Source of the DNA: an uncultured Actinomycetota bacterium
GTDB lineage: Bacteria > Actinomycetota > Acidimicrobiia > Acidimicrobiales > SZUA-35
DNA: 64,000 bases
Assembly (NCBI GenBank): GCA_963732695.1
Contig: CAVTAP010000013.1
Location: 265,611 to 329,610 of the forward strand
Reading direction: 5' to 3'
Shown here piece after piece: positions 1 through 59,605 of this stretch (within the stretch, counting starts at the first letter, position 1; each line of letters opens with the position of its first letter). The notes below the pieces were generated by a model. It saw nothing but the letters and a program-made list of their open reading frames with translations. It made no database searches and was not told where the DNA came from. The translations under genes and the position numbers were made by a program.

Positions 1-808
1 CCTCCGCCTGGCCATCGGCAGCGTCGCCGCCACCGTGGTGCTGGTGCCCGAGGCCACCGACGCCGTGCGGGGCCGCCCCCTCGATGCGGACGCCGCCACG
101 GCCGCCGCCGAGGCGGTGCGGGCCGCCATCCATCCGATCGACGACCTGCGGGGCACGGCGGCGTACCGCCTCCACACCGCCGCCACCATGACGGCCCGGG
201 CGCTCATGGCCCTGGTCGCCGGGGCCGAGCTGGCCCACCGGCCGGCCGATCCGCCCCGCCTGTGGCGCCCCGGGTTCACCGGCCGCTACCCGGCGGGCGC
301 GGAGCAGGCGGCCAGCGTCGACGACGCCACCACCGTCACCACCACCGTCAACGGCTACACGGTGCGGGGCACGGGCGCCGCCTCGGCCACCCTGCTCGAC
401 TGGCTCCGCGACCACGCCGGCACCAACGGGGTGAAGGAGGGCTGCGCCGAAGGGGAGTGCGGGGCCTGCACCGTCCACCTCGACGGGGCGGCCGTGATGT
501 CCTGCCTCGTGCCCGCCGGCCGGGCCCACGGGGCCGAGATCACCACGGTGGAAGGCCTCGCCCCCGACACCGGCCTGCTCAGCCCGGTGCAGGAGGCCTA
601 CGTGGCCTGCGGCGCCGTCCAGTGCGGGTTCTGCACGCCAGGCCTGCTGATGGCCACCACCGCCCTGCTGGAGGAGAACCCCCGGCCCACCCTGGCCCAG
701 GTGGAGGCCGGTCTGGCCGGCAACCTGTGCCGCTGCACCGGCTACGGCGCCATCCATCGGGCTGTACACCAGGCTTCCACCATCTCCCCGGAGGACGGGC
801 GGGCATGA
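1..808 (+). CDS. XDH/CODH-family accessory subunit, 5'-truncated at window edge: C-terminal FAD-subunit (CoxM-like) domain fused to a [2Fe-2S] (CoxS-like) domain
   Basis: The frame of ORF 35..808 is open back to the window start. It has an HPIDDLRGTAAYR motif (CO_deh_flav_C-like), then Fe-S cysteine clusters CAEGECGACTV, CGFCTPG and CRCTGY. Its stop overlaps the next start (ATGA at 805-808). Confidence 0.85.
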   Translation, partial: LRLAIGSVAATVVLVPEATDAVRGRPLDADAATAAAEAVRAAIHPIDDLRGTAAYRLHTAATMTARALMALVAGAELAHRPADPPRLWRPGFTGRYPAGAEQAASVDDATTVTTTVNGYTVRGTGAASATLLDWLRDHAGTNGVKEGCAEGECGACTVHLDGAAVMSCLVPAGRAHGAEITTVEGLAPDTGLLSPVQEAYVACGAVQCGFCTPGLLMATTALLEENPRPTLAQVEAGLAGNLCRCTGYGAIHRAVHQASTISPEDGRA

Positions 809-3051
809 CCGTCGGCGGCACCACCAGGCGGATCGACAGCGAGGGCAAGGTCACCGGCGTCACCGAGTATCCGGCCGACCGGATCCCGCCCGACGCCCTG
901 GTGGCCCGGGTGGTGTTCACCAACCAGGCCCACGCCCGCCTCACCTCGCTCGACGTGTCGGCGGCCGAGGCGGTGCCCGGCGTGGTGGCCGTGTTCACCG
1001 CCCCCGACGTGCCGGTCAACGTCTACGGCCTCACCCTGCCCGACCAGCCGGTGTTCGTGGGCACCAGCCACACCGGCCGCACCGACGTGCCGTGCGACGT
1101 GAGCCGGTGGGAGGCCGACCACCTGGCCCTGGTGGTGGCCGAGACGGCGCACGCCGCCGAGGATGCCGTCGCCGCCATCACCGCCACCTGGGAACCCCGC
1201 CCGGTGCTGGGCACGATCGACGAGGCCATGGCCCCCGGCGCCCCCCTTCTCCACCCCGAGAACGGGCTCGATCACAACGTCTACACCACCTACAACATCC
1301 GCAAGGGCGACATGGCCGCCGGCTGGGCCGCCGCCGCCGCCGTGGTGGAGGCGGTCTACGAGGTCCCCTATCAGGAGCACGCCTACCTCCAGCCCGAGGC
1401 CGGCATGGCCTACATCGACGACCACGGCCGGGTGACGGTGGAGATCGCCGGCCAGTGGACCCACGAGGACCGGGAGCAGATCGCCCACGCGTTGGACCTG
1501 CCGGAAGACGAGATCCGGGTCATCTACCCCGCCATCGGCGGCGCCTTCGGGGGCCGGGAAGACACGTCGCTCCAGATCGTGCTGGCCCTGGCCGCCTGGC
1601 ACCTCCACCAGCAGGGCGAGCACCGGCCGGTGGGTTGCGTGTGGAGCCGGGAGGAGTCGATCGTCGGCCATCACAAGCGGCACCGGGGCCGGATCCGGGC
1701 CCGGTGGGGGGCCGACGCCGACGGCAGGATCACGGCGGTGGAGAGCGAGGCCTGGCTCGACGCCGGCGGCTACAACTACACGTCGAACAAGGTGCTGGGG
1801 AACCTCCACCTGGGGCAGGGCGGCCCCTACGAGGTGCCCAACGCCCACATCACCAGCCACGCCGTCTACACCAACGCCGTCCCCGGCGGCGCCTTCCGGG
1901 GGTTCGGCGGGCCCCAGGCGGCCTACGTGGCCGAGTGCCAGATGAACAAGCTGGCCGAGGCCCTGGGGCTCGACCCGGTGGAGATCCGCCGCCGCAACCT
2001 GCTGCACGACGGGTCGATCGGCATCACCCAGACCCCCATGCCCGACGGCGTCACCATCGCCGAGGTGGTCGACGCCTGCGCCGCCGCGGCGGCCCGGCCG
2101 TCGCCGGTGGGGTCTCCGCCCGCCCCCTACACGCCGTTCGCCAGCCTGGGCCCGGTCGAGAGCGACCTGCGCCGGGGCCGGGGGTTCGCCTGCGCCTTCA
2201 AGAACGTCGGGTTCAGCTTCGGCTTCCCCGAGCGGTGTGAGGCCGAGATCGTCCTGCACGGCGAGGCGGGCGACGACCAGCCCCACGGCGCCGACCTGTT
2301 CCACGCCGGGGCCGACGTGGGCCAGGGCGCCCACACCGTGTTCACCCAGATGGCGGCGGAGGCCCTGGGCCTGCCGGTGGAGCGGGTGCACGGCCACTTC
2401 TCCGACACCGCCATCACCGGAGACTCCGGCTCGGCGTCGGCCTCCCGCCTCACCTGGATGGCCGGCAACGCCATCCTGGGGGCGGCCGAGGAGGCCGACA
2501 AGGCGTGGCGCAACGGCGACCGCCCGGCGGTGGGCCGGTTCCGGTACGTGCCCCCGCCCACCGAGGCCCTCGACCCCGAGACCGGGGCCTGCGTCCCCAA
2601 CTTCACCTACGGCTACGTGGCCCAGGCGGTGGAGCTGACGGTCGACATCGGCACCGGCCACATCCGGGTGGACCGGGTGGTCTCCACCCACGACGTCGGC
2701 CGGGCCATCAACCCCGACCTGGTGGTGGCCCAGATCGAGGGCGGCGTCGTGCAGGCCCACGGCTACGTGCTGAGCGAGAACCTCCAGGTCCACGAGGCCC
2801 GGATCCAGACGCCCCGCCTCAGCACGTATCTCATCCCCGGCATCGGCGACGTGCCGGTGGTGATCGAGCCCGTGATCCTCGAGCTGGCCGACCCCATCGG
2901 GCCGTGGGGGGCCCGGGGCATGGCCGAGATGCCGATGATGACCTACGCCCCGGCCGTGGTGGCCGCCCTCCACGACGCCACCGGCATCTGGTTCGACGCC
3001 TTCCCCCTCACCCCCTCCCGGGTCCTGGCCCGGCTCAACGAAAGCGCCTGA
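805..3051 (+). CDS. Molybdopterin-binding large subunit of xanthine dehydrogenase / aldehyde oxidase / CO dehydrogenase family
   Basis: 749 aa from ATG 805, in-frame inside ORF 262..3051 whose upstream part is Arg/Pro-rich junk. The N-terminus reads [12 protein letters not shown], and GGAFGGRED and later Moco-domain blocks follow. It is translationally coupled to the upstream Fe-S subunit. Confidence 0.9.
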
Positions 3052-34047: not shown

Positions 34048-35887
34048 TCAGGCGGGGGCGTTGGCGTTCTTGCGCTGCTTGGCCGCTCGGCCCCGCACGT
34101 TGGGGTCGAGCTCCACCTTGCGGAGCCGCACGCTGATCGGGGTCACCTCGACGCACTCGTCGGTGGCGATGAACTCCAGCGCCTGCTCCAGCGAGAGCAC
34201 CCGGGCCGGGGTGAGCTTCACCGTGTTGTCGGACCCGGCGGCCCGGTGGTTGGTGAGCTGCTTCTCCCGGGTCACGTTGACGTCCATGTCATCCGAGCGG
34301 GAGTTCTCGCCCACGATCATCCCGCAGTAGACGCCAACACCGGGGGCCACGTGCATGTCGGCCCGCTCCTGCAGGCTGATCAGGGCGTAGGCGGTCACCG
34401 GGCCCATGCGGTCGGCCACCAGGGAGCCGGTGCGGCGGGTGCGGATCTCGCCGCACCAGGGCTCGAAGCCCTCCATCGACTGGTTCAGCACGCCGGTGCC
34501 CCGGGTCTCGGTGAGGAACTCGGTGCGGAACCCGATGAGGCCCCGGGCCGGCACCAGGTAGTCGAGGCGGACCCAGCCCAGGCCGTGGTTGACCATGTCG
34601 GCCAGCCGGCCCTTGCGGGCGGCCAGCAGCTGGGTGACGGCCCCCAGGTGCTCCTCGGGCACGTCGATCGTGACCCGCTCCACCGGCTCGTGGACCACGC
34701 CGTCGATCTCCCGGGTCACCACCTCGGGCTTGCCGACGTTCAGCTCGAAGCCCTCCCGGCGCATGGTCTCCACCAGCACCGCCAGCTGGAGCTCGCCCCG
34801 GGCCTGGACCTCCCAGGCGTCGGGCCGGTCGGTGTTCAGCACCCGGATGCTCACGTTGCCCACCAGCTCGGCGTCGAGCCGGTTGCGGATCATGCGGGCG
34901 GTGACCTTCGACCCCTCCCGGCCGGCCAGGGGCGAGGTGTTGCACCCGATCGTCATCGACAGGGCGGGCTGGTCGACCTCGATCACGGGCAGGGGCCGGG
35001 GATCGGCCATGTCCACCAGCGACTCGCCGATCATGATGTCGTCGATGCCGGCCACCGCCACCAGGTCGCCCGGGCCGGCCTCGTCGGCCGGGACCCGGGT
35101 GAGGGCCTCGGTGAGGTACAGCTCCGACAGCTTCACCGAATCGAGGCGGCCGTCGACGCGCTGCAGGCCTACGGTCTGGCCCCGCTTCAGCGTGCCGTTC
35201 ATGACCCGGCACAGGGCCAGGCGGCCCAGGTAGGGGGAGGCGTCGAGGTTGGTGACCCAGGCCTGGAGGGGGTGGCCCTCGGTGTAGGTGGGGGCCGGGA
35301 TGGTGTCGCGGATCGTCTCGAACAGGGGACCGAGGTCGCCCCCGCCGTCTTCGAGGATGGGGGAGGCCCAGCCGTCGCGGGCGGCGCAGTAGAGGATGGG
35401 GAAGTCCACCTGGTCGTCGCGGGCGTCGATGTCGAAGAACAGCTCGTACACCTCGTCGACCACCTCGGCCGCCCGGGCGTCGGGCCGGTCGACCTTGTTG
35501 ATCACCAGGATCACGGGCAGGTTGCGGGCCAGGGCCTTGCGCAGCACGAACCGGGTCTGGGGCAAGGGGCCCCTCGGCCGCGTCGACCAGGAGCACGATC
35601 CCGTCGACCATGGTGAGCGCCCGCTCCACCTCGCCTCCGAAGTCGGCGTGGCCCGGGGTGTCGACGATGTTGAACGTGAAGTCCTTCCACCGCACCGAGG
35701 TGTTCTTGGCCAGGATGGTGATGCCCTTCTCCCGCTCCAGGTCGCTCGAGTCCATCACCCGGTCGACCACGGCCTCGTTGGCCCGGAACACACCGGTCTG
35801 GCGGAGCATGGCGTCGACCAGGGTTGTCTTTCCGTGATCGACATGGGCCACGATGGCCACGTTTCGCAGGTCATGGCGCGAAGCCAT
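34048..35887 (-). pseudogene. typA: Translational GTPase TypA/BipA, one frameshift in this assembly
   Basis: [31 protein letters not shown] and VINKVDR. The N-terminus is in ORF 34289..35920 up to VDAAEGPL and the remainder in ORF 34048..35565 ([12 protein letters not shown]...). An extra base lies near 35561-35574 (ggggccccttgcccc). Confidence 0.9.
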
Positions 35888-35989
35888 CCCATTCACCTCG
35901 TTCTGGTCGGCCTTGGCCACCGAACGGCAGTAGGCACAGCCCTCCAGCCTATCCGGCGTAAGGCGCTCCCGGTCAGTCCGGGCTCCGCC

Positions 35990-36583
35990 TCAGCTCGACG
36001 GGGGGCGTTCGGGGGCGGGGGTGGCTTCGCTCCAGTAGTCGGGGCGCACGTCGAAGGCCTCGATCATGCGCTGCCAGCCCGACGCCACCGACAGGGCGTA
36101 GCCCAGCTCCAGGATCTGGCCGTGGTCGAAGTGTTCCAGCAACTCGGCCATCAGCTCGGGGGCCACCTGGGGCTTGCCGTGCTCGGTGAGGGCGTCGGCC
36201 AGCTTGAGGGCGGCGATGGTGGCCGGGGGCAGGATGCCGACGGCGTCGGCCAGGTCACCGGCGGCGGCGTCGGCCTCTTCGGCGGTCAGTCCTTTGCGCA
36301 CCAACGATGCGCTACGGGCGAGGCTTCAATGGACGCACTGGTTGCGGAAGGCGAGCCGGATCCGGCCCAGCTCGACCATCTTGGGATCGAGGCTGGACCG
36401 GTCGGTGTAGATGAAGGTCACCCAGTTGAGGAACTGGTTCAGCACCTCGGGCTTACGGGCCAGGGTGAGGAACAGGTTGTCGTCGGTGTAGGCCTTCTCG
36501 AACCAGACGTCGAGCCGCTTGCGTAGCTCGGGGTCCAGCTCGGCCGGATCGGCCTTGGGGAGCATCCCGTGGTCGTTCGCCAT
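35990..36583 (-). CDS. Carboxymuconolactone decarboxylase (CMD)/AhpD-like protein interrupted by one in-frame TGA (36328..36326): candidate selenocysteine codon or nonsense mutation
   Basis: ORFs 36326..36634 and 35990..36304 share one frame. The junction reads RNQ-C-V-H-TGA-SLARSASLVRKGLTAEE, so the TGA sits at the second Cys position of the family CxxC motif. A hairpin lies at 36296-36312. Confidence 0.6.
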
Positions 36584-36638
36584 GATTCCGACAGTACCCG
36601 GCGGTGGAGTTGGGCCCCCAACGCCCGAAAACACAGCT

Positions 36639-37874
36639 TCAGCGTTCGCCCCGGCCCACTTCTTTCACCTTGGCGTAGACGTTGGCGTTCATGCGGGAGG
36701 CGCCCACCACCGGGATGTCCTCGTCGGCCAGCTCCGGCATCCAGTTCTTGCGTTGCAACGCCGCCTCCACGTAGGGGGCGAGCCGTTCGGCCTTCTCCGC
36801 TTCCACCCGCTCCCGGGCATCGACGAAACCGGGCAGCACCTCGTCGCCGAACAGCTGGAGGCTCTCGCAGATGTGCTCGTGACGGTTGAGGCCGCCCTGC
36901 TGGAGGAAGATCACCTGGTCGATGCCGGCGGCCTCGTAGTCGCGCACCAGGGCCCCGAAGTCGGCCGGGGTGCCGATGCCGGGGGCCCGCCGGGTGAGGG
37001 GCTTGGCCTTGGCCTGGGCCATGTAGTCGGCCCACAGGGTGGTGCGGCCGGGCCGGTTGTCCTGGGTGACGAGGGCGCCCATGGCGTAGTTGAAGAAGCG
37101 GAACCCGTGGATGCCCCGGTCGACCGCCTGGTCGGGGTCGTGGTGGAGGGAGAACGGGGCCACCATGGCGATGTTGGCGTTCACCACGTGGGTGAGGGGC
37201 ACGCACTCCTCGGAGCGGATGATGTCGTAGTACACGTCGGCCCAGCGCTTGGCCTCGTCGGGGTCGAGGAAGCTGAAGGCCAGCGCCCCCAGGCCGTTGC
37301 GGGCCGCCACCTCGATCGTCGAGCGGTTGGTGCAGGCGATCCACATCGGCGGGTGGGGCTTCTGGAACGGCTTGGGCAGCACGTTGCGGCAGGGCATGGT
37401 GAAGCCCTCGCCCTCGTAGCCGGGGTAGGGGTCCATCACCATCATGTTGGCGATCTGCTCCGCCGCCTCCAGCGACAGGTCCCGCTTCTGGCGGGCCGAG
37501 ATGCCGAAGCCCCGCAGCTCCATGCGGGTGGCGCTCTCGCCGATCCCGAAGTCCACCCGGCCCGACGAGATCAGGTCGAGCATGGCCACCGTCTCGGCCG
37601 TGCGGGCCGGCGGGTTGTACTGGGGGATGACCTGGCGGATGCCGAAACCGACCCGGATGTTCTTCGTCCGGGCGGCCAGGGCGGTCAGGAACACGTCGGA
37701 CGCCGAGCAGTGCGAGTACTCGTCGAGGAAGTGGTGCTCGACGGCCCAGGCGTGGTGGATGCCGAGCCGGTCGGCCAGCTCCACCTGCTCGATGGCCTCC
37801 TGCACCAGCTGGTGCTCGGCCCCTTCGCCCCACGGCTTGGGCAGTTGCAGCTCGTAGAACACCCCGAAGCGCAT
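36639..37874 (-). CDS. Luciferase-like monooxygenase (LLM) family flavin-dependent oxidoreductase
   Basis: 411 aa from ATG 37874 (MRFGVFYELQLPKPW...). Typical LLM blocks. Confidence 0.85.
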   Translation of the reverse strand: MRFGVFYELQLPKPWGEGAEHQLVQEAIEQVELADRLGIHHAWAVEHHFLDEYSHCSASDVFLTALAARTKNIRVGFGIRQVIPQYNPPARTAETVAMLDLISSGRVDFGIGESATRMELRGFGISARQKRDLSLEAAEQIANMMVMDPYPGYEGEGFTMPCRNVLPKPFQKPHPPMWIACTNRSTIEVAARNGLGALAFSFLDPDEAKRWADVYYDIIRSEECVPLTHVVNANIAMVAPFSLHHDPDQAVDRGIHGFRFFNYAMGALVTQDNRPGRTTLWADYMAQAKAKPLTRRAPGIGTPADFGALVRDYEAAGIDQVIFLQQGGLNRHEHICESLQLFGDEVLPGFVDARERVEAEKAERLAPYVEAALQRKNWMPELADEDIPVVGASRMNANVYAKVKEVGRGER

Positions 37875-51399: not shown

Positions 51400-51407
51400 T
51401 TGTCTTG

Positions 51408-51491
<84 letters not shown>

Positions 51492-51629
51492 GAGTGGTGC
51501 CGAGGCATCGTAGCGGAGGTTCGCCTGCTCGACACCGATCTTTCGCCGAACGGTGCCGCACCCAGGCGAGCGCAAGCCGGACGTCGTTCGTGGCATGCTG
51601 GTCGCCAGCTACAAGCCCCTTGGTAGAGG

Positions 51630-52298
51630 ATGGCAGTGGTCTTACGAAGTTTCGAGGATCGCCTGGAACGACTGGTGGAGGGGATGTTCGCCCGCGCTTT
51701 CCGAAGCGGCCTGCAACCGGTGGAGATCGGTCGTCGGCTCATAAAAGAGATGGACACCAGCCGCACGATCGACGTGCGGGGTCAGGCGCTGGCCCCGAAC
51801 CGGTTCGTGATCCGGGTGTCGGTCGAGGACCATGCCCGGTTCGGCCAGGTGCAGCAGTCGCTCACCAACGAGCTCACCGCCATCGTGCGGGACCACGCCA
51901 AGGCCGAAGGTCTCGGGTTCCTGGGCCGGGTCTCGGTGGAGCTCCAGGCCGACCACAACCTCAAGGTCGGGCTGTTCCGGGTCCACCCCTCGTACGACGA
52001 GCGGATCCCGGTGGCCGAGCCCACGGCCTGGCTCGAGGGCCCCGACGGTGCCCATCACCTCCTCACCGGCATGGTGTCCACCATCGGCCGCCTGTCCGAC
52101 TCCGACATCGTCATCAACGATCAGAACGTTTCCCGGCGCCACGCCGAGCTCCACGCAGCCGGCGACGGCTACGAGCTCATCGATCTCGGGTCCACCAACG
52201 GAAGCAAGGTGAACGGCCAGAGGATCCAACGTTGCGCACTGTCCGACGGCGACCAGGTGACGTTCGGTGCGATCACCCTGCGATTCAGACGGCTCTGA
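51630..52298 (+). CDS. fhaA: FhaA-like protein (DUF3662 N-terminal domain plus C-terminal FHA domain)
   Basis: FEDRLERLVEGMFARAF N-terminus. FHA core IGRLSDSDIVINDQNVSRRHAEL...DLGSTNGSKVNG. Confidence 0.85.
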   Translation: MAVVLRSFEDRLERLVEGMFARAFRSGLQPVEIGRRLIKEMDTSRTIDVRGQALAPNRFVIRVSVEDHARFGQVQQSLTNELTAIVRDHAKAEGLGFLGRVSVELQADHNLKVGLFRVHPSYDERIPVAEPTAWLEGPDGAHHLLTGMVSTIGRLSDSDIVINDQNVSRRHAELHAAGDGYELIDLGSTNGSKVNGQRIQRCALSDGDQVTFGAITLRFRRL

Positions 52299-52336
52299 GC
52301 CCACGGTGGGCCTGAACCTGGCTAGCCTGCGCACTG

Positions 52337-52831
52337 GTGACCGATGCCCTACTCACGCTTCTCAAGTGGTGCCTGCTCGGTCTTCTCTATTTGTTCTTCT
52401 TCCGGGTGCTCCAGGCCACCTGGGCCGGATCCCGTCCGGTGGCCGCCGTTCGCCGGGTGGCGGCGGCCGTGCCCGATGCCGGAGCGCCGGCCCGCGGGAG
52501 ATCGCGGCGCGGCGGTGGGGGGCGGGCGGCCAAGGGTCGTCAGGGCCCGCCCAAGCTGGTCATGGTCGAGCCCCCGGCTCTGGCCGGTCGGGAGTACGTC
52601 GTGAACGGTGAGCTCACCATCGGCCGGGCCGCCAGCTGCCACGTGACCCTGGACGACACCTACATATCCCAGCTCCATGCCCGGATCTGGCTCGACGGAG
52701 ACCAGGTGGCGGTGGAAGACCTGGGCTCCACGAACGGCACCTACCTCAACAACCAGCGGGTCACCACCAAGCAGTTCGCCTCCTTCGGTGACCAGCTCCG
52801 CCTCGGCGGGATCGTGATGGAGCTCCGCTGA
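52337..52831 (+). CDS. fhaB: FhaB/FipA-like membrane-anchored FHA domain protein
   Basis: N-terminal TM helix LLTLLKWCLLGLLYLFFF. FHA core IGRAASCHVTLDDTYISQLHARI...DLGSTNGTYLNN. Confidence 0.85.
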   Translation: MTDALLTLLKWCLLGLLYLFFFRVLQATWAGSRPVAAVRRVAAAVPDAGAPARGRSRRGGGGRAAKGRQGPPKLVMVEPPALAGREYVVNGELTIGRAASCHVTLDDTYISQLHARIWLDGDQVAVEDLGSTNGTYLNNQRVTTKQFASFGDQLRLGGIVMELR

Positions 52832-54520
52832 TGGAACTGCTCGGTGCCACCGTCACCCATGTGGGCAACGTGCGGGAGTCCAACCAGGACCGCGGCCACT
52901 TCGGCGGCTTCGTGGCCGTCGTGGCCGACGGCATGGGCGGCCACCAGGGCGGAGAGACGGCGGCCACCATCGCCATCTCCGAGTTCGTCGGCATCACCGA
53001 CCCCGTCGGCCCCAGCGGCCTGGTCGAGCTGGTGGAAGACGCCAACCGGGCCGTGTTCGAACGGGCCGCCGACCCCGACCTGCGGGGCATGGGCACCACG
53101 CTGGTGGCGCTCACCCTGCGGCCGGCCGAAGGCAAGATCAGCGTGGTCAACGTGGGCGACAGCCGGGCCTACGTGGTCGACGGGCACTCGCTCCAGCAGC
53201 TCACCAACGACCACAGCCTGGTGGAAGACCTGGTACGCCAGAAGCGGCTGACCCCCGAGGAGGCGGCCCACCACCCCCAGCGCAACATCCTCACCCGGGC
53301 CCTCGGCATCTCGTCCCACGTCGAGGTCGACCAGTTCCTCCGCCAGACACGGGTGGGCGACCGGTTCCTGCTCTGCAGCGACGGCCTGTTCAACGAGGTG
53401 TCGGAAGAAGACATCCTCCGCATCCTCACCAGCTTCGTCTCCCCGCTGGAAGCGGCCCAGACGCTGGTGGCCTCGGCCCTGTCGGGCGCCGGCCGCGACA
53501 ACATCACCGTGGTGGTGGTCGACGTGGTGGAAGACGGTCACGGCGGATCGCTCACGCCCACGGCCGAGGCCGTCACCGTGCCGGCCATGCCCGCGGCGCT
53601 GGTCGACACCGATCCCGCCGCCCTGGCCGACGCCGGATTCGACAACGGCCAGGGGGCGGCCGTGCCGCCGGCCGGTGCCCCCCACGGCGGCGTCCCCGCC
53701 GCCGGCCTCTACGCCGACGCCGGCCAGAGCCACCGCCCGCCATCGCTGGCCCGCCCGGCCGGCAGCGTGCTCGAGCTCGACACCGCCTCCCCCACCCCCC
53801 TCCGCCGGCAGGAGCTGTCGGGCTGGAGCAGCAGCCCACGGTGGGCCTGGAGGGAGCGGGCGCCGACCACACGATGGTGGCCCACACCGTGCCGGTGCCC
53901 GATTCGGCCGTGGCCACCGCCGAGATCGCCAGCGAGCCCCCTGGGGCCCCTACACCTTCGAGCCCGATCGGCCGGAACCCCGACGGGGCCGGAGGGCGTT
54001 CGCCCTGGTGGCGCTGGGCGTTCTGCTGGGCGCGCTGGTGGCGGCGGCCTATCTGGGGGTCGGCTACTACTACCAGGCGAAGTGGTTCGTGACGCAGGTC
54101 GACGGCCAGGTGGCGATGTTCCAAGGCCGCCCCGGTGGCCTGCTGTGGCTCGAGCCGGAACGGGTGCCCCTGGATGGCCCGAACGTCGACACCCTCATCC
54201 CCCAGGACAAGGAACGGGTGGCCGAAGACCGCCCGCAGGAGTTCGATTCGAAGGCCGAGGCCACCGCCTTCGTCGACTCGTTGATGCTGGCCGAGGAGAT
54301 CGTGAAGGACCCGGCGGCGCAACTGGGCGGGGTCGAGGCCTCCACCAGCACCGTCCCGGGAGACCCCAACGCCGTCACCACCACCGTGCCGGTCGGCGGG
54401 CTGGTCACCGTGCCCGGAGCGGCCGGGGCCGCCGGCGGGGCCGAACCTGCCTCTCCCGCTTCCACCGCCACCGCGGCCACCGCCGCCAGCGCCGGCTCGT
54501 CCACCTCCTCAGCCGGCTGA
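52831..54520 (+). pseudogene. pstP: PP2C-family Ser/Thr phosphatase PstP (catalytic domain, linker, TM helix, extracellular domain); two frameshifts in the linker in this assembly
   Basis: RESNQD, ADGMGGH, DGLF and GRDNITVVVVD motifs. The linker continues in a second frame (LEQQPTVGLEGAGADHTMVAH...) and the TM plus C-terminal domain in a third (PYTFEPDRPEPRRGRRAFALVALGVLLGALVAAAYLG...). The shifts fall at C/G runs near 53790-53800 and 53935-53950. Confidence 0.85.
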
Positions 54521-54521
54521 G

Positions 54522-55829
54522 ATGGCGCCCCGGCGCCTGGAGCTCGGCCTGCTCATCCTGGGCACGCTGATCACAGCCCTGGCCTACGGCCTGCTCAACA
54601 TCGACGACACGGTGAGCGCCCGGGCCGACGTGGCCGTGTTCTTCGGCGTGATCCTTCTGCTCCTCCTGGGGGCCCATCTCGTCATCCGGTTCGTGGCCCC
54701 CAACGCCGACGGCCTCCTGCTCCCCCTGGCCGCCCTGCTCAACGGGCTGGGCTACGTGGTGATCGCCCGCCTCGACCCCGGCCTGGCCGACAGCCAGGCG
54801 GCCTGGACGTTCATCGGCATCGGGGCCTTCAGCGCCGTGCTGCTCCTCCTGCCGGACCTGCGGTGGCTGGCCGACTTCCGCTACACGCTCGCCCTGCTGG
54901 GCGTGGCCATGCTGCTGCTGCCGCTGATCCCGGGCCTGGGCCGCACGATCAACGGGGCCCGGATCTGGCTGCGGGCCGGGCCGTTCTCCATTCAGCCCGG
55001 TGAGTTCGCCAAGATCGTGCTGGCCGCCTTCCTGGCGGGGTATCTCACCGACAAGCGCGAGCTGCTCACGATTTCCAACCGCCGGCTGGGCCCGCTGAAC
55101 GTGCCCGATTTCAAGCACTTCGGGCCGATGCTCCTGGCCCTCGGGGTGGCCCTGATGGTGATGGTGTTCCAGCGTGACCTGGGATCGTCGCTGCTGTTCT
55201 TCACCCTGTTCCTGGTGATGTTCTACGTGGCCACGGGCCGGGCCGCCTACGTTGCCGCCGGCCTGGTGCTGTTCTCCGGCGCCTCGTTCCTGTCGTGGAG
55301 GCTCTTCTCCCACGTCCAGCGGCGGGTCGACATCTGGCTCCATCCGTTCGCCGATCCCAAGGACAAGGGGTTCCAGATCGTCGAGGCCTGGTTCGGGCTG
55401 GCCGACGGGGGCGTCACCGGCACCGGACTGGGGCGGGGTCTGCCCACCAAGGTCCCCTACGCCGAGACCGACATGATCTTCGCCGCCATCGGCGAGGAAC
55501 TCGGCCTGCTGGGGGCGACGGCGGTGCTGGCGGCCTTCATGTTCCTGGTGGCCGCCGGGTTCCGGGTGGCGGCCTCGGCCCACCGCCCGTTCGAGAAGCT
55601 GCTGGCCACCGGCCTCACGTCTCTGCTCGGCTTCCAGGCCTTCATCATCGTCGGCGGGGTGCTGCGGGTGCTGCCCCTCACCGGCGTGACCCTGCCCTAC
55701 GTGTCCTACGGCGGGTCGTCGCTGATCTCGAACTACGTGATCCTGGCTCTGCTGGTGCGGATCTCGGATTCCTCGGCCCGTTCCGAGGCGGCGGCGGCCG
55801 CCGCCACGGCCCAGCCGGTACTGGTGTGA
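54522..55829 (+). CDS. rodA: FtsW/RodA/SpoVE-family peptidoglycan polymerase (SEDS)
   Basis: 435 aa, about 10 TM helices. Blocks IQPGEFAKI and LPLTGVTLPYVSYGGSS. Confidence 0.9.
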   Translation: MAPRRLELGLLILGTLITALAYGLLNIDDTVSARADVAVFFGVILLLLLGAHLVIRFVAPNADGLLLPLAALLNGLGYVVIARLDPGLADSQAAWTFIGIGAFSAVLLLLPDLRWLADFRYTLALLGVAMLLLPLIPGLGRTINGARIWLRAGPFSIQPGEFAKIVLAAFLAGYLTDKRELLTISNRRLGPLNVPDFKHFGPMLLALGVALMVMVFQRDLGSSLLFFTLFLVMFYVATGRAAYVAAGLVLFSGASFLSWRLFSHVQRRVDIWLHPFADPKDKGFQIVEAWFGLADGGVTGTGLGRGLPTKVPYAETDMIFAAIGEELGLLGATAVLAAFMFLVAAGFRVAASAHRPFEKLLATGLTSLLGFQAFIIVGGVLRVLPLTGVTLPYVSYGGSSLISNYVILALLVRISDSSARSEAAAAAATAQPVLV

Positions 55830-57331
55830 ACGGCTCGCTGCGCCACGTGATGGTGGTCCTGCTGGGCTGCTTCACCCTGCTGTTCGTGCAGCTCAACCGG
55901 GTGCAGATCCTGGAGGCGGAGTCGCTGAAGGACAACCCGTCCAACACCCGCACCGTGCAGCGGGAGTTCAACCGTCCCCGGGGAGACATCGTCACCAGCG
56001 ACGGCGTGGTGGTGGCCACCTCGGTGGAGACGCCGGGCCAGCGCTTCGGTCGCCAGCGCACCTACCCCGAGGGGCCCCTGTACGCCCACACGGTGGGGTA
56101 CCTGTCGTTCAACCTGGGGGCCGACGGGGCGGAGAAGGTGTTCAACACCGAGCTGACCGGGTCCACCGCGGCCCAGCAGCTGGCCGACTTCACCAGCCTG
56201 CTCGACCCCGACCCCGACGGCGGCTCGGTCACGCTCACGCTCGACGACAAGCTGCAGAAGGTGGCCCGCGACACCCTGGGCGACCGGCCGGGCTCGGTGG
56301 TGGCCATCGACCCCCGCACCGGCGCCATCCGGGCCATGTGGAGCTACCCCTCGTTCGACCCGAACCTGCTGGCCACGAACGACGGCGGCGCCGCCAACAC
56401 GTCGTACCAGGAGCTGCTCGAGGCCGACGGCAACCCGCTGCGGGCCAAGTCCTACAAGGACCGGGAGTTCCCCGGGTCCACGTTCAAGCTGATCACGGCG
56501 GCCGCCGCCCTGGAGTCGGGGGCGGCCACGCTGGAGGAGCCGGTGTTCGAGGCCACCAGCTCCTACACCCCGCCGCTCACCAACAAACCCATCACGAACT
56601 TCAGCGGCGGGCCTTGTGGCGGCAACCTCACCACGATCCTGGCCCGGTCCTGCAACACCCCGTTCGCCAAGCTGGCGGCCGAGACGCTGGGCCCGCTGGT
56701 GATGGTCAACCAGGCCGAGGCGGCCGGGTTCAACACCGATGTCCCCTTCGATCTGCCCGGCGCCGCCGTCAGCAACTACCCGACCGACTACGGCAAGCGG
56801 ATCCAGTCGCCCACCGCAGAGCGGCCGGCCGGCCTCTACGAGAACACCCCCAAGCTGGCCCAGACCGCCATCGGCCAGAACGACGTGCAGGCCAGCCCGC
56901 TGATGATGGCCCTGGTGGCGGCGGGGGTGGCCAACGACGGGGTGATTCCCAAGCCCCACGTGCTGGCCGAGGTGCGCGATGCCACCGGCAAGGTGGTACG
57001 CACCGACAAGGGCGAGGAGTGGCGCATGTCGATGCGCACCGAGAACGCCCTGATCCTCCAGCAGGCGATGATCGAGGCGGCCGAGCGGGGCAAAACGGCC
57101 ACGGTGGACGGCCTGCGGATCGGGGTGAAGACCGGTACCGCCCAGCTCGGCACCGACCCGCCGCGGTCCCACGCCTGGATCGTGGGATTCGGGGGCCGGC
57201 CCGACGGTGAGCCCGAGTTGGTGGTGTCGGTACTGGTGGAAGGCCAGGAGGGCTCGGTCGACCAGACGGGCGGCGCAGTCGCCGGCCCGATCGCCAGAGC
57301 ACTGTTCGCCGAGTGGTTCAACCGGGGGTGA
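55826..57331 (+). CDS. pbpA: Class B penicillin-binding protein (PbpA-like transpeptidase)
   Basis: GTG 55826 overlaps the rodA stop. SxxK motif in PGSTFKLITAAAAL. KTGTA motif present. Confidence 0.9.
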   Translation: MNGSLRHVMVVLLGCFTLLFVQLNRVQILEAESLKDNPSNTRTVQREFNRPRGDIVTSDGVVVATSVETPGQRFGRQRTYPEGPLYAHTVGYLSFNLGADGAEKVFNTELTGSTAAQQLADFTSLLDPDPDGGSVTLTLDDKLQKVARDTLGDRPGSVVAIDPRTGAIRAMWSYPSFDPNLLATNDGGAANTSYQELLEADGNPLRAKSYKDREFPGSTFKLITAAAALESGAATLEEPVFEATSSYTPPLTNKPITNFSGGPCGGNLTTILARSCNTPFAKLAAETLGPLVMVNQAEAAGFNTDVPFDLPGAAVSNYPTDYGKRIQSPTAERPAGLYENTPKLAQTAIGQNDVQASPLMMALVAAGVANDGVIPKPHVLAEVRDATGKVVRTDKGEEWRMSMRTENALILQQAMIEAAERGKTATVDGLRIGVKTGTAQLGTDPPRSHAWIVGFGGRPDGEPELVVSVLVEGQEGSVDQTGGAVAGPIARALFAEWFNRG

Positions 57332-57388
57332 CCGCGTGCTGGCAGCGTGCGCCGTTTGGACCGGTGCAATGAGTAGGCTGACCCTGCT

Positions 57389-59605
57389 GTGACTGATGCC
57401 TCGACTGCGCGCCCGGTGCTCAGCGGACGCTATGAGCTTCATCGCCGGATCGCCCGCGGCGGTATGGCCGACGTCTTCCTGGCCCGTGACCAGCTGCTCG
57501 ACCGGCCTGTGGCCGTCAAGGTGCTGTTTCCCCAGTACGCGGCGGAACCCACGTTCGTGGCCCGCTTCCGCCGGGAAGCCCAGGCGGCGGCGAACCTGAA
57601 CCACCCCTCGGTGGTGGCCGTGTACGACTGGGGCTCGCACGACGACACGTACTTCATCGTGATGGAGTACGTGGAGGGTCGCAGCCTGGCCGACGTGCTG
57701 GCGGCCGAGGGCCACCTCCACCCCGACCGGGCGGCCGAGATCGCAACCGACGTGGCCGCCGCCCTCGGCTTCGCCCACCGCAACGGCACCGTCCACCGCG
57801 ACGTGAAGCCGGGCAACATCATGATCACGCCGGCCGGCCAGGTGAAGGTGACCGACTTCGGCATCGCCCGGGCCTTCGGCGGCGACGACGACGAACTCAC
57901 CCAGACCGGCTCGGTCATGGGCACGGCCAGCTACTTCTCGCCCGAGCAGGCCCAGGGCCGGGCGGTCGACCCCCGCTCCGACCTGTACTCGCTGGGTGTG
58001 GTGCTGTTCGAGATGGTCACGGGCGAGCCGCCGTTCACCGGCTCCTCACCGGTGTCGATCGCCTACAAGCACGTGCAGGAGCCGGCCCCCCGGGCCAGCG
58101 ACCGCAACCCGTCGGTGCCCCCGGCGCTCGATGCCATCATCACCCGTCTCCTGGCCAAGAACCCCGACCACCGCTACCCCACGGCGGAAGACGTCCGGGC
58201 CGACCTGCGCCGGTTCCGGGAGGGTCATCCGCTCGTCGGGGCCGCCCCCATGCACGGCGGCAACGGCGGAGGCGGGGGTGGCGTGCCCACCGCCGCCTAT
58301 CGGCCGCCCCTGCCCCCCGATCCGGGCGCCACCCGGGCCATGCCCCGGCCGGCGGCCGACACCGGCTCCAGCCGGGCCATCATCGACACCACCCGGGCCA
58401 TGCCGGCCTCGGCCGCCGTGCGCCAGCACGAGCCGGTGGAGGAGTACTACGAGCCGCCCAGCCGCACCGGGGTGTTCGTGGCCATGCTGGCCGGCCTCCT
58501 CCTCCTGCTGATCGGCCTGATCTTCCTGATCTCGCTGAAGCTCAACGGCAACTCCGATGGCACCGACACCACCCAGGGCGGCGCGGTGCTGAAGGATGTG
58601 CCCACGGTGCTGGGCGAAGATCTCACGTCGGCCACCAACAAGCTCAAGGATCTGGGGTTCGAGGTCACGTCGAAGTTCGAGCCACGCGAGGGCGAGGAGC
58701 CCAACACGGTGTTCGACCAGGACCCCAAGGGCGGCGAGCAGGCCGAGGAGGGCAGCACGATCACGCTGTCGGTGGTGCAGGCGGCCAAGACGGTTCCCGT
58801 GCCCGACGTGGCGGGCAAGACCCAGCAGGAGGCCGAGCAGCTGCTCGACCAGGCCGGGCTCACCGTCACCGTCACCCGGGAGGAGAGCGACACGGTGGCC
58901 GAGGGCCTGGTGATCCGCCAGTCGATCCAGCCCGGCCAGCAGGTCAACGAGGGGGCCGAGGTGGAGATCGTCGTTTCCGGCGGCACCTCGCAGGCCGCCA
59001 TCCCCGATCTCAAGAACCAGCCGCTGAACACGGCCACCAGCCAGCTCCAGGGGCTCGGCTTCTCGGTGATGGTGAAGCAGGAGCCCAGCGCCGACGTGCC
59101 CGCCGGCTCGGTCACCCGCACCGATCCGCCGGCCGGCAGCCAGGTGCCCAAGACCACCCCGATCACGGTCTACCAGTCGAGCGGCCCGGAGCTGAAGGCC
59201 GTGCCGTCGGTGCAGAACCTCACCCAGGCGGCGGCCGAGCAGCAACTGACCAACGCCGGCTTCCAGCCGGTGGTGGAGTTGCAGGATGTCGACGCCGGGT
59301 CGGGCCTGGTCGACAAGGTGATCGCCCAGCAGCCTCAGGCCGGCACCCAGATGCCGACGGGCAGCGAGATCATCATCACCGTGGGCAAGGCGGGCTCGAC
59401 CACCTCGTCGCAGACCACGTCGACGACCTCGGCGTCATCGTCGTCGACGAGCTCCACGCTCGACCACCAGCGGCAACTAGCTCAAGGCGGCGATCAGCTC
59501 CGAACGGTGGCCCGGGCCAGGAAGTTGGTGAGCAGGTCCCGCCCGCCCACGGTGAGGATCGACTCGGGGTGGAACTGCACACCCTCCACGTCGAGCTCCC
59601 GGTGA
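57389..59605 (+). CDS. pknB: Ser/Thr protein kinase PknB with four PASTA domains; 3' end uncertain
   Basis: [23 protein letters not shown] and SPE motifs, a TM helix, four PASTA repeats and an S/T-rich tail. The last ~40 codons overlap convergent trpG and look non-native. Confidence 0.9.

Follow-up and report, generated by a model that had tools for sequence, protein, structure and literature searches.

A predicted selenocysteine codon in an AhpD/CMD-like gene of an uncultured Acidimicrobiia bacterium

Does the TGA codon at 36328..36326 on the minus strand of a 64,000-nucleotide stretch of actinomycetotal DNA (contig CAVTAP010000013.1, from an uncultured member of the Acidimicrobiales; the whole 64-kb stretch is called the window below) close a short reading frame, or is it read as selenocysteine (Sec) within a longer gene? 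The first-pass annotation of the window had pointed out that two open reading frames (ORFs), 36326..36634 and 35990..36304 on the minus strand, share one frame and are parted by this TGA only, an observation that both the ORF list and the translation bear out. It had further joined the two into a product of ~197 residues resembling carboxymuconolactone decarboxylase (CMD) and AhpD: in scans of Pfam and NCBIfam, for which Cys was put at the TGA position, the joined protein does match Pfam CMD PF02627, scoring 33 bits where the gathering score is 23, residues 45-130 aligning with profile positions 1-83 of 84, so that the domain spans the TGA. Lastly, it had put the codon forward as a candidate selenocysteine. 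That proposal gains support from a TGA at the same place in 85/85 homologous genes, from the pairing of TGA with Cys in relatives, and from a conserved downstream hairpin with compensatory changes, and we place at roughly 0.88 the probability that 36583..35990 (minus strand) is one gene for a predicted 197-residue thiol-selenol oxidoreductase of the AhpD/CMD fold, with UGA 36328..36326 decoded as Sec.

The TGA codon and its alignment column

The gene opens with ATG at 36583 and closes with a terminal TGA at 35992..35990; on translation, its 197-codon frame is interrupted solely by the in-frame TGA, without any other stop or frameshift. Around that codon the minus strand of the window, whose G+C content is ~72%, reads CAG TGC GTC CAT TGA AGC CTC GCC CGT AGC GCA TCG TTG GTG CGC AAA GGA, giving the protein context R-N-Q-C-V-H-[TGA]-S-L-A-R-S-A-S-L-V-R-K-G. 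At the other end of the frame, the N-terminal motif M-A-N-x-x-G-x-L-P-K is kept in homologues.

To place the codon in its family, 80 loci of 122 matches from a scan of one genome per GTDB species were combined with 4 metagenome loci; these 84 fetched loci and the window together supply 85 genes, which represent ~80 species representatives and at least 6 phyla, comprise 82 unique 120-nt contexts, and share between 44 and 96% protein identity. In every one of the 85 the codon that follows C-[V/F]-H is TGA, with TAA, TAG, TGC and TGT each counted 0 times. Most of the loci belong to Acidimicrobiia; others come from Methylomirabilota/Rokubacteria, Eisenbacteria, Limnocylindria and Dehalococcoidia (Chloroflexota), and further ones from Verrucomicrobiia, Entotheonellaceae, Deferrimicrobiaceae and Desulfobacteraceae.

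Protein databases carry the imprint of the same codon. A search of 5.8 billion proteins found just two full-length homologues, both with C-V-H-C (P0001, 63% identity; P0002, 47%), and no full-length member annotated with Sec. Among the fragments in these databases, at least 6 end exactly at ...RNQCVH and ~20 begin just past the TGA (MRKGL...); an exhaustive HMMER search with P0001 gave the same picture, in that strong matches break off at query residue 85 or begin near residue 95 and hardly any run through the site. Such a pattern marks gene callers that halted at a single codon common to many independently made assemblies. In NCBI and JGI records the halves go by the names 'hypothetical protein' or 'alkylhydroperoxidase family enzyme'. 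Against 85/85 genes of the predicted Sec form among those examined, ~3 Cys forms are present among database proteins.

The annotation had also assigned the TGA to the second Cys of the CxxC motif, and the alignments agree: across matches that span the site, the TGA column holds Cys in P0001, P0002, P0034 and all 11 distant CMD homologues, and the same is true of solved structures. In PA0269 (2O4D, 2IJC, 7XW1) C-A-Y-C aligns with C-V-H-[TGA], and positions 9-180 of the family profile align across the TGA with the 197-residue AhpD-core protein 2PRR (E = 5e-14; C-L-Y-C vs C-V-H-C), a profile match to solved AhpD-core structures by which the predicted fold is settled. Three database proteins, P0003, P0033 and P0046, are recorded with Gly in the Sec column (C-V-H-G), and may have been translated by some pipelines under a code in which TGA = Gly. 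The active-site arrangement of the AhpD type, as in AhpD and PA0269, is E-x11-C-x-x-C-x3-H. In the window family E71-x11-C83-x-x-U86 is present and invariant, U86 being the predicted Sec; at +4 Arg90 takes the place of the His, and inside the motif there is an invariant His, His85. Cys83 is the sole invariant column once distant homologues are included.

Beyond the TGA the frame continues to behave as coding sequence. The ratio of non-synonymous to synonymous differences (pN/pS) past the TGA is 0.17-0.24 against the closest relatives L005, L006 and L007 (0.17 for L005 and L006), which share 92-96% protein identity, ~90-93% DNA identity and gene order with the window, and rises to ~0.4-0.53 against more distant relatives, values similar in kind to those of the N-terminal part; motifs in the C-terminal part, GWQR[MF]IEAF among them, do not vary within the family. 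Judged by this pattern of substitution, the half downstream of the TGA is under purifying selection and translated. TGA nevertheless serves as the ordinary stop in 13/15 of the window genes checked, the terminators of this gene and of the gene upstream among them, which excludes a genome-wide reassignment of TGA and calls for a local recoding signal.

The downstream hairpin as a candidate recoding signal

A stem-loop at 36296-36312 had been noticed in the first-pass annotation, and it does exist, if not in the shape then given: the proposed 5-bp stem with a 7-nt loop becomes, with an added U·G and C-G pair, a 7-bp stem capped by a GUU triloop. Its stem begins 13 nt after the UGA and the first base of its loop lies 20 nt after it. 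Identical geometry at the same offset is the minimum free energy (MFE) hairpin in 42/82 unique homologue segments, and an RNAalifold consensus of 65 sequences of 70 nt contains this helix as its only helix.

In a set of 57 distinct 'class A' sequences all 7 pairs form (399/399 cells), a percentage that is inflated by the choice of the set on at least 6/7 pairs, which leaves the compensatory changes unaffected. Among these, 54 sequences have C-G at pair 21-35 and 3 have U-A; at pair 22-34 the counts are G-C 47, U-A 6 and U-G 4, and at pair 24-32 they are A-U 52, G-C 4 and G-U 1; pair 25-31 switches between U-A and U-G. Changes on both sides thus affect 3/7 pairs and amount to 17 double-change cells, a figure reached by 0/500 shuffles, and when, as a control, the 3' arm is slid by 1-3 columns, pairing falls to 12-47%. 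Some of the compensatory changes alter the protein in concert, for instance Ala (GCA) becoming Ser (UCA) together with Arg (CGC) becoming Ser (AGC), and such coordinated amino-acid changes at compensating pairs indicate that the constraint acts on RNA. The hairpin also retains codons that are rare in the codon usage of the window, namely GCA (1.5% of Ala codons) and UUG (2.5% of Leu codons).

Divergent subgroups of the family carry other hairpins at nearly the same place. In Rokubacteria a different hairpin of the same size, CCUCGGC-CGUG[A/C]-GCCG[A/G]GG, lies 16 nt after the UGA and has one A-U compensatory variant, while other subgroups have GUCAUCA-AGUU-UGAUGAC or GCUCAUC-CGUGUU-GGUGAGC; a G is found among the first two loop bases in all of them. 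In two genes of the Cys form the hairpin is lost or weakened, with 2/7 and 4/7 pairs by eye, an anecdotal comparison at n = 2.

The outer pairing GCCUC/GAGGC, which had been suggested as enclosing the hairpin, has fared less well. It is present in the window, and clear conservation is lacking: 78% of its cells pair, compared with 72% in shuffles, some double changes occur, between 8 and 28 sequences fail to pair at each of four of the five positions and no sequence does so at the outermost, and the pairing is absent from the RNAalifold consensus.

A loop distance of ~20 nt from the UGA is within the range generally used for prediction of bacterial selenocysteine insertion sequence (SECIS) elements. 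In E. coli fdhF the SECIS forms inside the coding sequence a short way past the UGA, as a stem-loop that has a bulged U and a small apical tetraloop containing G (and U). The window hairpin resembles the fdhF type in position and in the G/U of its small apical loop, and differs in having no sequence similarity, a GUU triloop instead of a tetraloop and no evident bulged U. The criterion for bacterial SECIS elements, a stem-loop directly 3' of the UGA with a G in its small apical loop (PMC1088965), describes the 7-bp/GUU hairpin.

These features suggest how the gene might be expressed. The hairpin at 36312..36296 would direct SelB to deliver Sec at UGA 36328..36326 in place of termination, and translation would run on to the real stop at 35992..35990, yielding 197 residues with the site E71-x11-C83-V-H85-U86. 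In the AhpD-type enzyme of M. tuberculosis, nucleophilic attack falls to the second residue of CxxC and resolution of the intermediate to the first. By analogy, the selenolate of Sec86 could attack a peroxide or the disulfide of a partner, with Cys83 resolving the product as a selenenyl-sulfide, and the protein may accordingly act as a peroxide or disulfide reductase, or as the reductant of a partner peroxidase. The features of the locus are collected in Table 1.

Table 1. Positions of the predicted selenoprotein gene, its site and hairpin, and other features of the window
Feature	Position	Strand	Basis or detail
Predicted AhpD/CMD-like selenoprotein gene	35990..36583	minus	197 codons + terminal TGA; translation, Pfam CMD, conserved N-terminus, profile alignment
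In-frame UGA, predicted Sec codon (residue 86, second position of C-x-x-C/U)	36326..36328	minus	TGA in 85/85 genes; Cys in Cys-form, distant CMD and PDB relatives
Cys83 codon, first residue of C-V-H-U redox motif	36335..36337	minus	Invariant with distant homologues and in family alignment
Glu71 codon, 11 residues before Cys83	36371..36373	minus	Invariant in family alignment; nearly invariant with distant homologues
Predicted bacterial SECIS hairpin in coding sequence	36296..36312	minus	5' arm GCGCAUC 36312..36306; loop GUU 36305..36303; 3' arm GGUGCGC 36302..36296
Possible lower stem, GCCUC 36324..36320 / GAGGC 36277..36273	36273..36324	minus	Proposed in first-pass annotation; not established
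LLM-class luciferase-like flavin monooxygenase gene, upstream neighbour	36639..37874	minus	ORF; family by eye from sequence (MRFGVFYEL...)
tRNA-Leu(CAG)	51407..51491

Competing explanations and genomic surroundings

An in-frame TGA can also arise by damage to a gene or to its record. A nonsense mutation, TGC or TGT to TGA, that inactivated a CMD-family gene in this lineage would be in keeping with a window that holds at least one other damaged gene, a frameshifted typA, and with public annotations in which the two halves are separate hypothetical proteins; such decay is very improbable, given that the same TGA recurs in 85/85 homologues across several phyla, that purifying selection acts on the sequence past it (pN/pS 0.17-0.5), that the gene bears no other stop or frameshift, and that the homologues, with 82 unique contexts and 44-96% identity, are not copies of one contaminant. 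Smaller still is the chance that the true codon is TGC or TGT with its A miscalled. In typA the assembly does have an extra nt that three close relatives lack, an error lying among G/C homopolymers, but that error is an indel and not a substitution, and TGA is reported by all of the independent assemblies, which stem from many projects and technologies and include the closest relatives L005-L007.

Somewhat less remote than either, though still improbable, is translation that makes no use of Sec, whether by read-through of the UGA by a near-cognate tRNA (Trp, Cys, Arg or Gly) or by termination and restart of a C-terminal product at a GTG, TTG or ATG in the hairpin. For this speak the unverified Sec machinery of this genome, the in-frame starts that are called (TTG 36304, and ATG in homologues reading ...SLMRKG...) and the Gly recorded at the site in P0003, P0033 and P0046, which may merely reflect a TGA = Gly code. 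A split product, however, would part Cys83 from the rest of the fold, since the CMD domain runs across the TGA, as do the PDB relatives of full length, and simple stop-restart offers no role for a covarying hairpin that stands at SECIS distance with a G-first apical loop. Translation without Sec is also at odds with a site that is the catalytic Cys column, with known selenoprotein genes in related loci, and with TGA as a normal stop in this genome.

Decoding of the UGA as Sec, which we favour over these accounts, has its own difficulties, and the following points weigh against it. Searches for selA, selB, selD and tRNA-Sec across the 64-kb window and 1.36 Mb of related loci came back empty, whether by ARAGORN (the window and 82/84 loci), by regular expressions for SelD and SelA motifs, or by tblastn with approximate query sequences for E. 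coli SelA, SelB and SelD; the sole tRNA of the window is a tRNA-Leu. These searches covered only the window and the fetched loci and say nothing about the rest of the genome, so that the Sec trait of this particular genome is a putative one. The window assembly contains at least one indel error, that in typA. With regard to the hairpin, part of its sequence conservation could stem from amino-acid constraint on S-A-S-L-V-R, the class A set was selected on pairing as described above, the 86-nt region around it is no more stable than shuffles (z = +1.5), and neither a gathering-threshold Rfam scan of the window nor a permissive scan of 35900-36700 returned a SECIS or other relevant family. The weak energy z-score can be put down to a measure unsuited to a 17-nt hairpin in 70% GC sequence, and nothing can be read from the Rfam result, since that database covers bacterial SECIS elements poorly. 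As to the wider lineage, Actinobacteria are listed among the phyla that use Sec (PMC1794560), and selA, selB, selC and selD are reported from all 84 complete genomes of Actinomarina, which belongs to another order of Acidimicrobiia (bioRxiv 10.64898/2026.04.03.716425, a 2026 preprint).

Indirect support for use of Sec comes from the related loci, where a scan for TGAs that lie in frame and are flanked on either side by coding signal brought two further kinds of gene to light. Paralogues of the UGSC family, at L070:8413-8949 (+) and L070:19285-19920 (-) and as the same pair in L071 and L077, have TGA at the U of U-G-S-C and score 129 and 138 bits against the NF041046 cut-off of 125; the pair flanks the CMD-like gene within ~10 kb in metagenome-assembled genomes (MAGs) of Rokubacteria, which places three selenoprotein genes in 20 kb. 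The other is a PrdB/GrdB-like gene whose motif LLVP-x-[TGA]-P-V-C-H-Q-T (UxxC) includes the in-frame TGA; it is located at L035:9056-9993 (+), L045 ~290-1150 (+) and L013:6248-7540 (-), and also in L016, L022 and L031. L035 and L045, both from Actinomycetota, have it next to the CMD-like gene, on the upstream side and on the same strand, and in four Methylomirabilota loci it is a few kb away. Its best NCBIfam match, TIGR04483 PrdB, falls below the cut-off, and from its sequence it is probably a second selenoprotein linked to the CMD-like one.

Gene neighbourhood adds little to this picture. The monooxygenase gene upstream ends 55 nt before the start of the predicted selenoprotein gene and is probably co-transcribed with it; a cluster of monooxygenase-like neighbours recurs in 9/~82 loci, and a Bac_luciferase gene lies two genes upstream of the gene for the Cys form P0001. 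When neighbourhoods are clustered, even the most widely shared neighbour occurs in no more than 12/~82 loci, so context gives no firm functional partner, and a scan for promoters and terminators around the gene returned nothing informative.

Elsewhere in the window, the frameshifted gene referred to above is that of the GTPase typA/bipA, 34048..35920 (minus), whose lesion lies at ~35565..35575. There the window has GAGGGGCCCCTTGCCCCAG, whereas L005, L006 and L007 have GAGGGCCCCCTGCCCCAG or an equally long variant. Relative to them the window has one nt inserted in a G/C-run context, in all likelihood an indel error of sequencing or assembly and not the mark of a real pseudogene. In the region 51627..59602 (+), ORF translations inspected by eye include FHA-domain proteins, a phosphatase, an FtsW/RodA-like protein, a penicillin-binding protein and Ser/Thr kinases, and the whole looks like a conserved actinobacterial cell-division and signalling cluster. 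Among database proteins, P0029 (144 aa, from a 622-bp contig) combines a TetR-like N-terminus, a segment near-identical to residues 107-150 of the window protein and unrelated sequence, and is probably a misassembly or a frameshifted short contig.

Relation to known families

Selenoproteins of this general kind are on record. AhpD-like proteins with CxxU (COG2128/YciW, TIGR01926) were described from Sargasso Sea metagenomes in 2005 and from genomes such as Alkaliphilus (PMC1088965, PMC1794560, PMC13188914), and a CMD-like (PF02627) CxxU selenoprotein was represented by 4 sequences in the Sargasso Sea survey and later by MBW1767730.1 (PMC1088965, PMC9312934, PMC13188914). CxxU selenoproteins of the AhpD- and CMD-like types being already known, the window gene is a further, unannotated one; the known picture of selenoprotein biology is unchanged by it, and a specialist would not find it surprising.

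Whether it belongs to something more particular is a matter on which we lean slightly towards doubt. The tentative proposal, drawn from sequence comparison and set against MBW1767730.1 by description only, is of a distinct AhpD/YciW-like C-[V/F]-H-U selenoprotein family that would lie outside curated models, be near-obligately Sec, possess its own GUU-triloop SECIS, be widespread in Acidimicrobiia and Methylomirabilota/Rokubacteria, and be mis-annotated as two hypothetical proteins. If true, such a family would mark unrecognised use of Sec in abundant Actinomycetota of soil, freshwater and marine systems. Division of the gene into two fragments, in essentially every public record examined, hides a predicted redox enzyme and would under-count Sec use in Acidimicrobiia and Rokubacteria, common members of soil, freshwater, marine and sponge communities, and hundreds of annotations would be mended by a family model in which Sec is accepted in this column. 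A near-exclusive Sec form would be unusual among thiol oxidoreductases, where Cys forms usually dominate, and could make a good case for asking why Sec is retained, while the compact covarying hairpin would be a clean natural example of a SECIS, as predicted, for Actinomycetota.

Set beside known proteins of the AhpD type, the window family is like M. tuberculosis AhpD, PA0269 (PDB 2O4D/2IJC/7XW1) and 2PRR in that their CxxC column aligns with its C-V-H-[U], in the Glu 11 residues upstream, and in an all-helical CMD domain that extends over the whole protein. Those proteins use Cys where the window family is predicted to use Sec, and identity to them is just ~25-30%. PA0269 has a His four residues past its second Cys (C-A-Y-C-V-N-M-H), whereas the window family has Arg there and an invariant His within the motif.

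Closer in kind are the AhpD-like/TIGR01926 selenoproteins, with which the predicted protein has in common its fold superfamily, Sec in place of the second Cys of CxxC, and a SECIS hairpin just past the UGA with a small, G-containing apical loop. TIGR01926 'peroxidase-related enzyme' is the best NCBIfam match for 27/27 family members scanned (E up to 0.01, best 2.4e-12, itself weak by the standard of this model); with 34.2 bits for the window protein against a curated cut-off of 81.8, the relationship is a distant one. The window protein likewise remains far below the cut-off of the YciW-related (seleno)protein model NF053654 (25.4 bits vs 310) and matches the AhpD core domain of NCBIfam weakly, while NF041238 AhpD_rel_CFYUT is matched weakly by 10/27 members and the GSU3128 family NF041047 by 1/27, the cut-offs of NF053654, NF041238 and NF041047 being reached in no case. 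The Sargasso CMD-like CxxU selenoprotein, compared by description only, is alike in its Pfam CMD domain, its CxxU motif and its candidate redox function. What sets the window family apart from the TIGR01926 type is a signature of its own, MANxHGxLPKA, DDNLFLTLA, C-[V/F]-H-U and GWQR[MF]IEAF, found mainly in Acidimicrobiia and Methylomirabilota/Rokubacteria.

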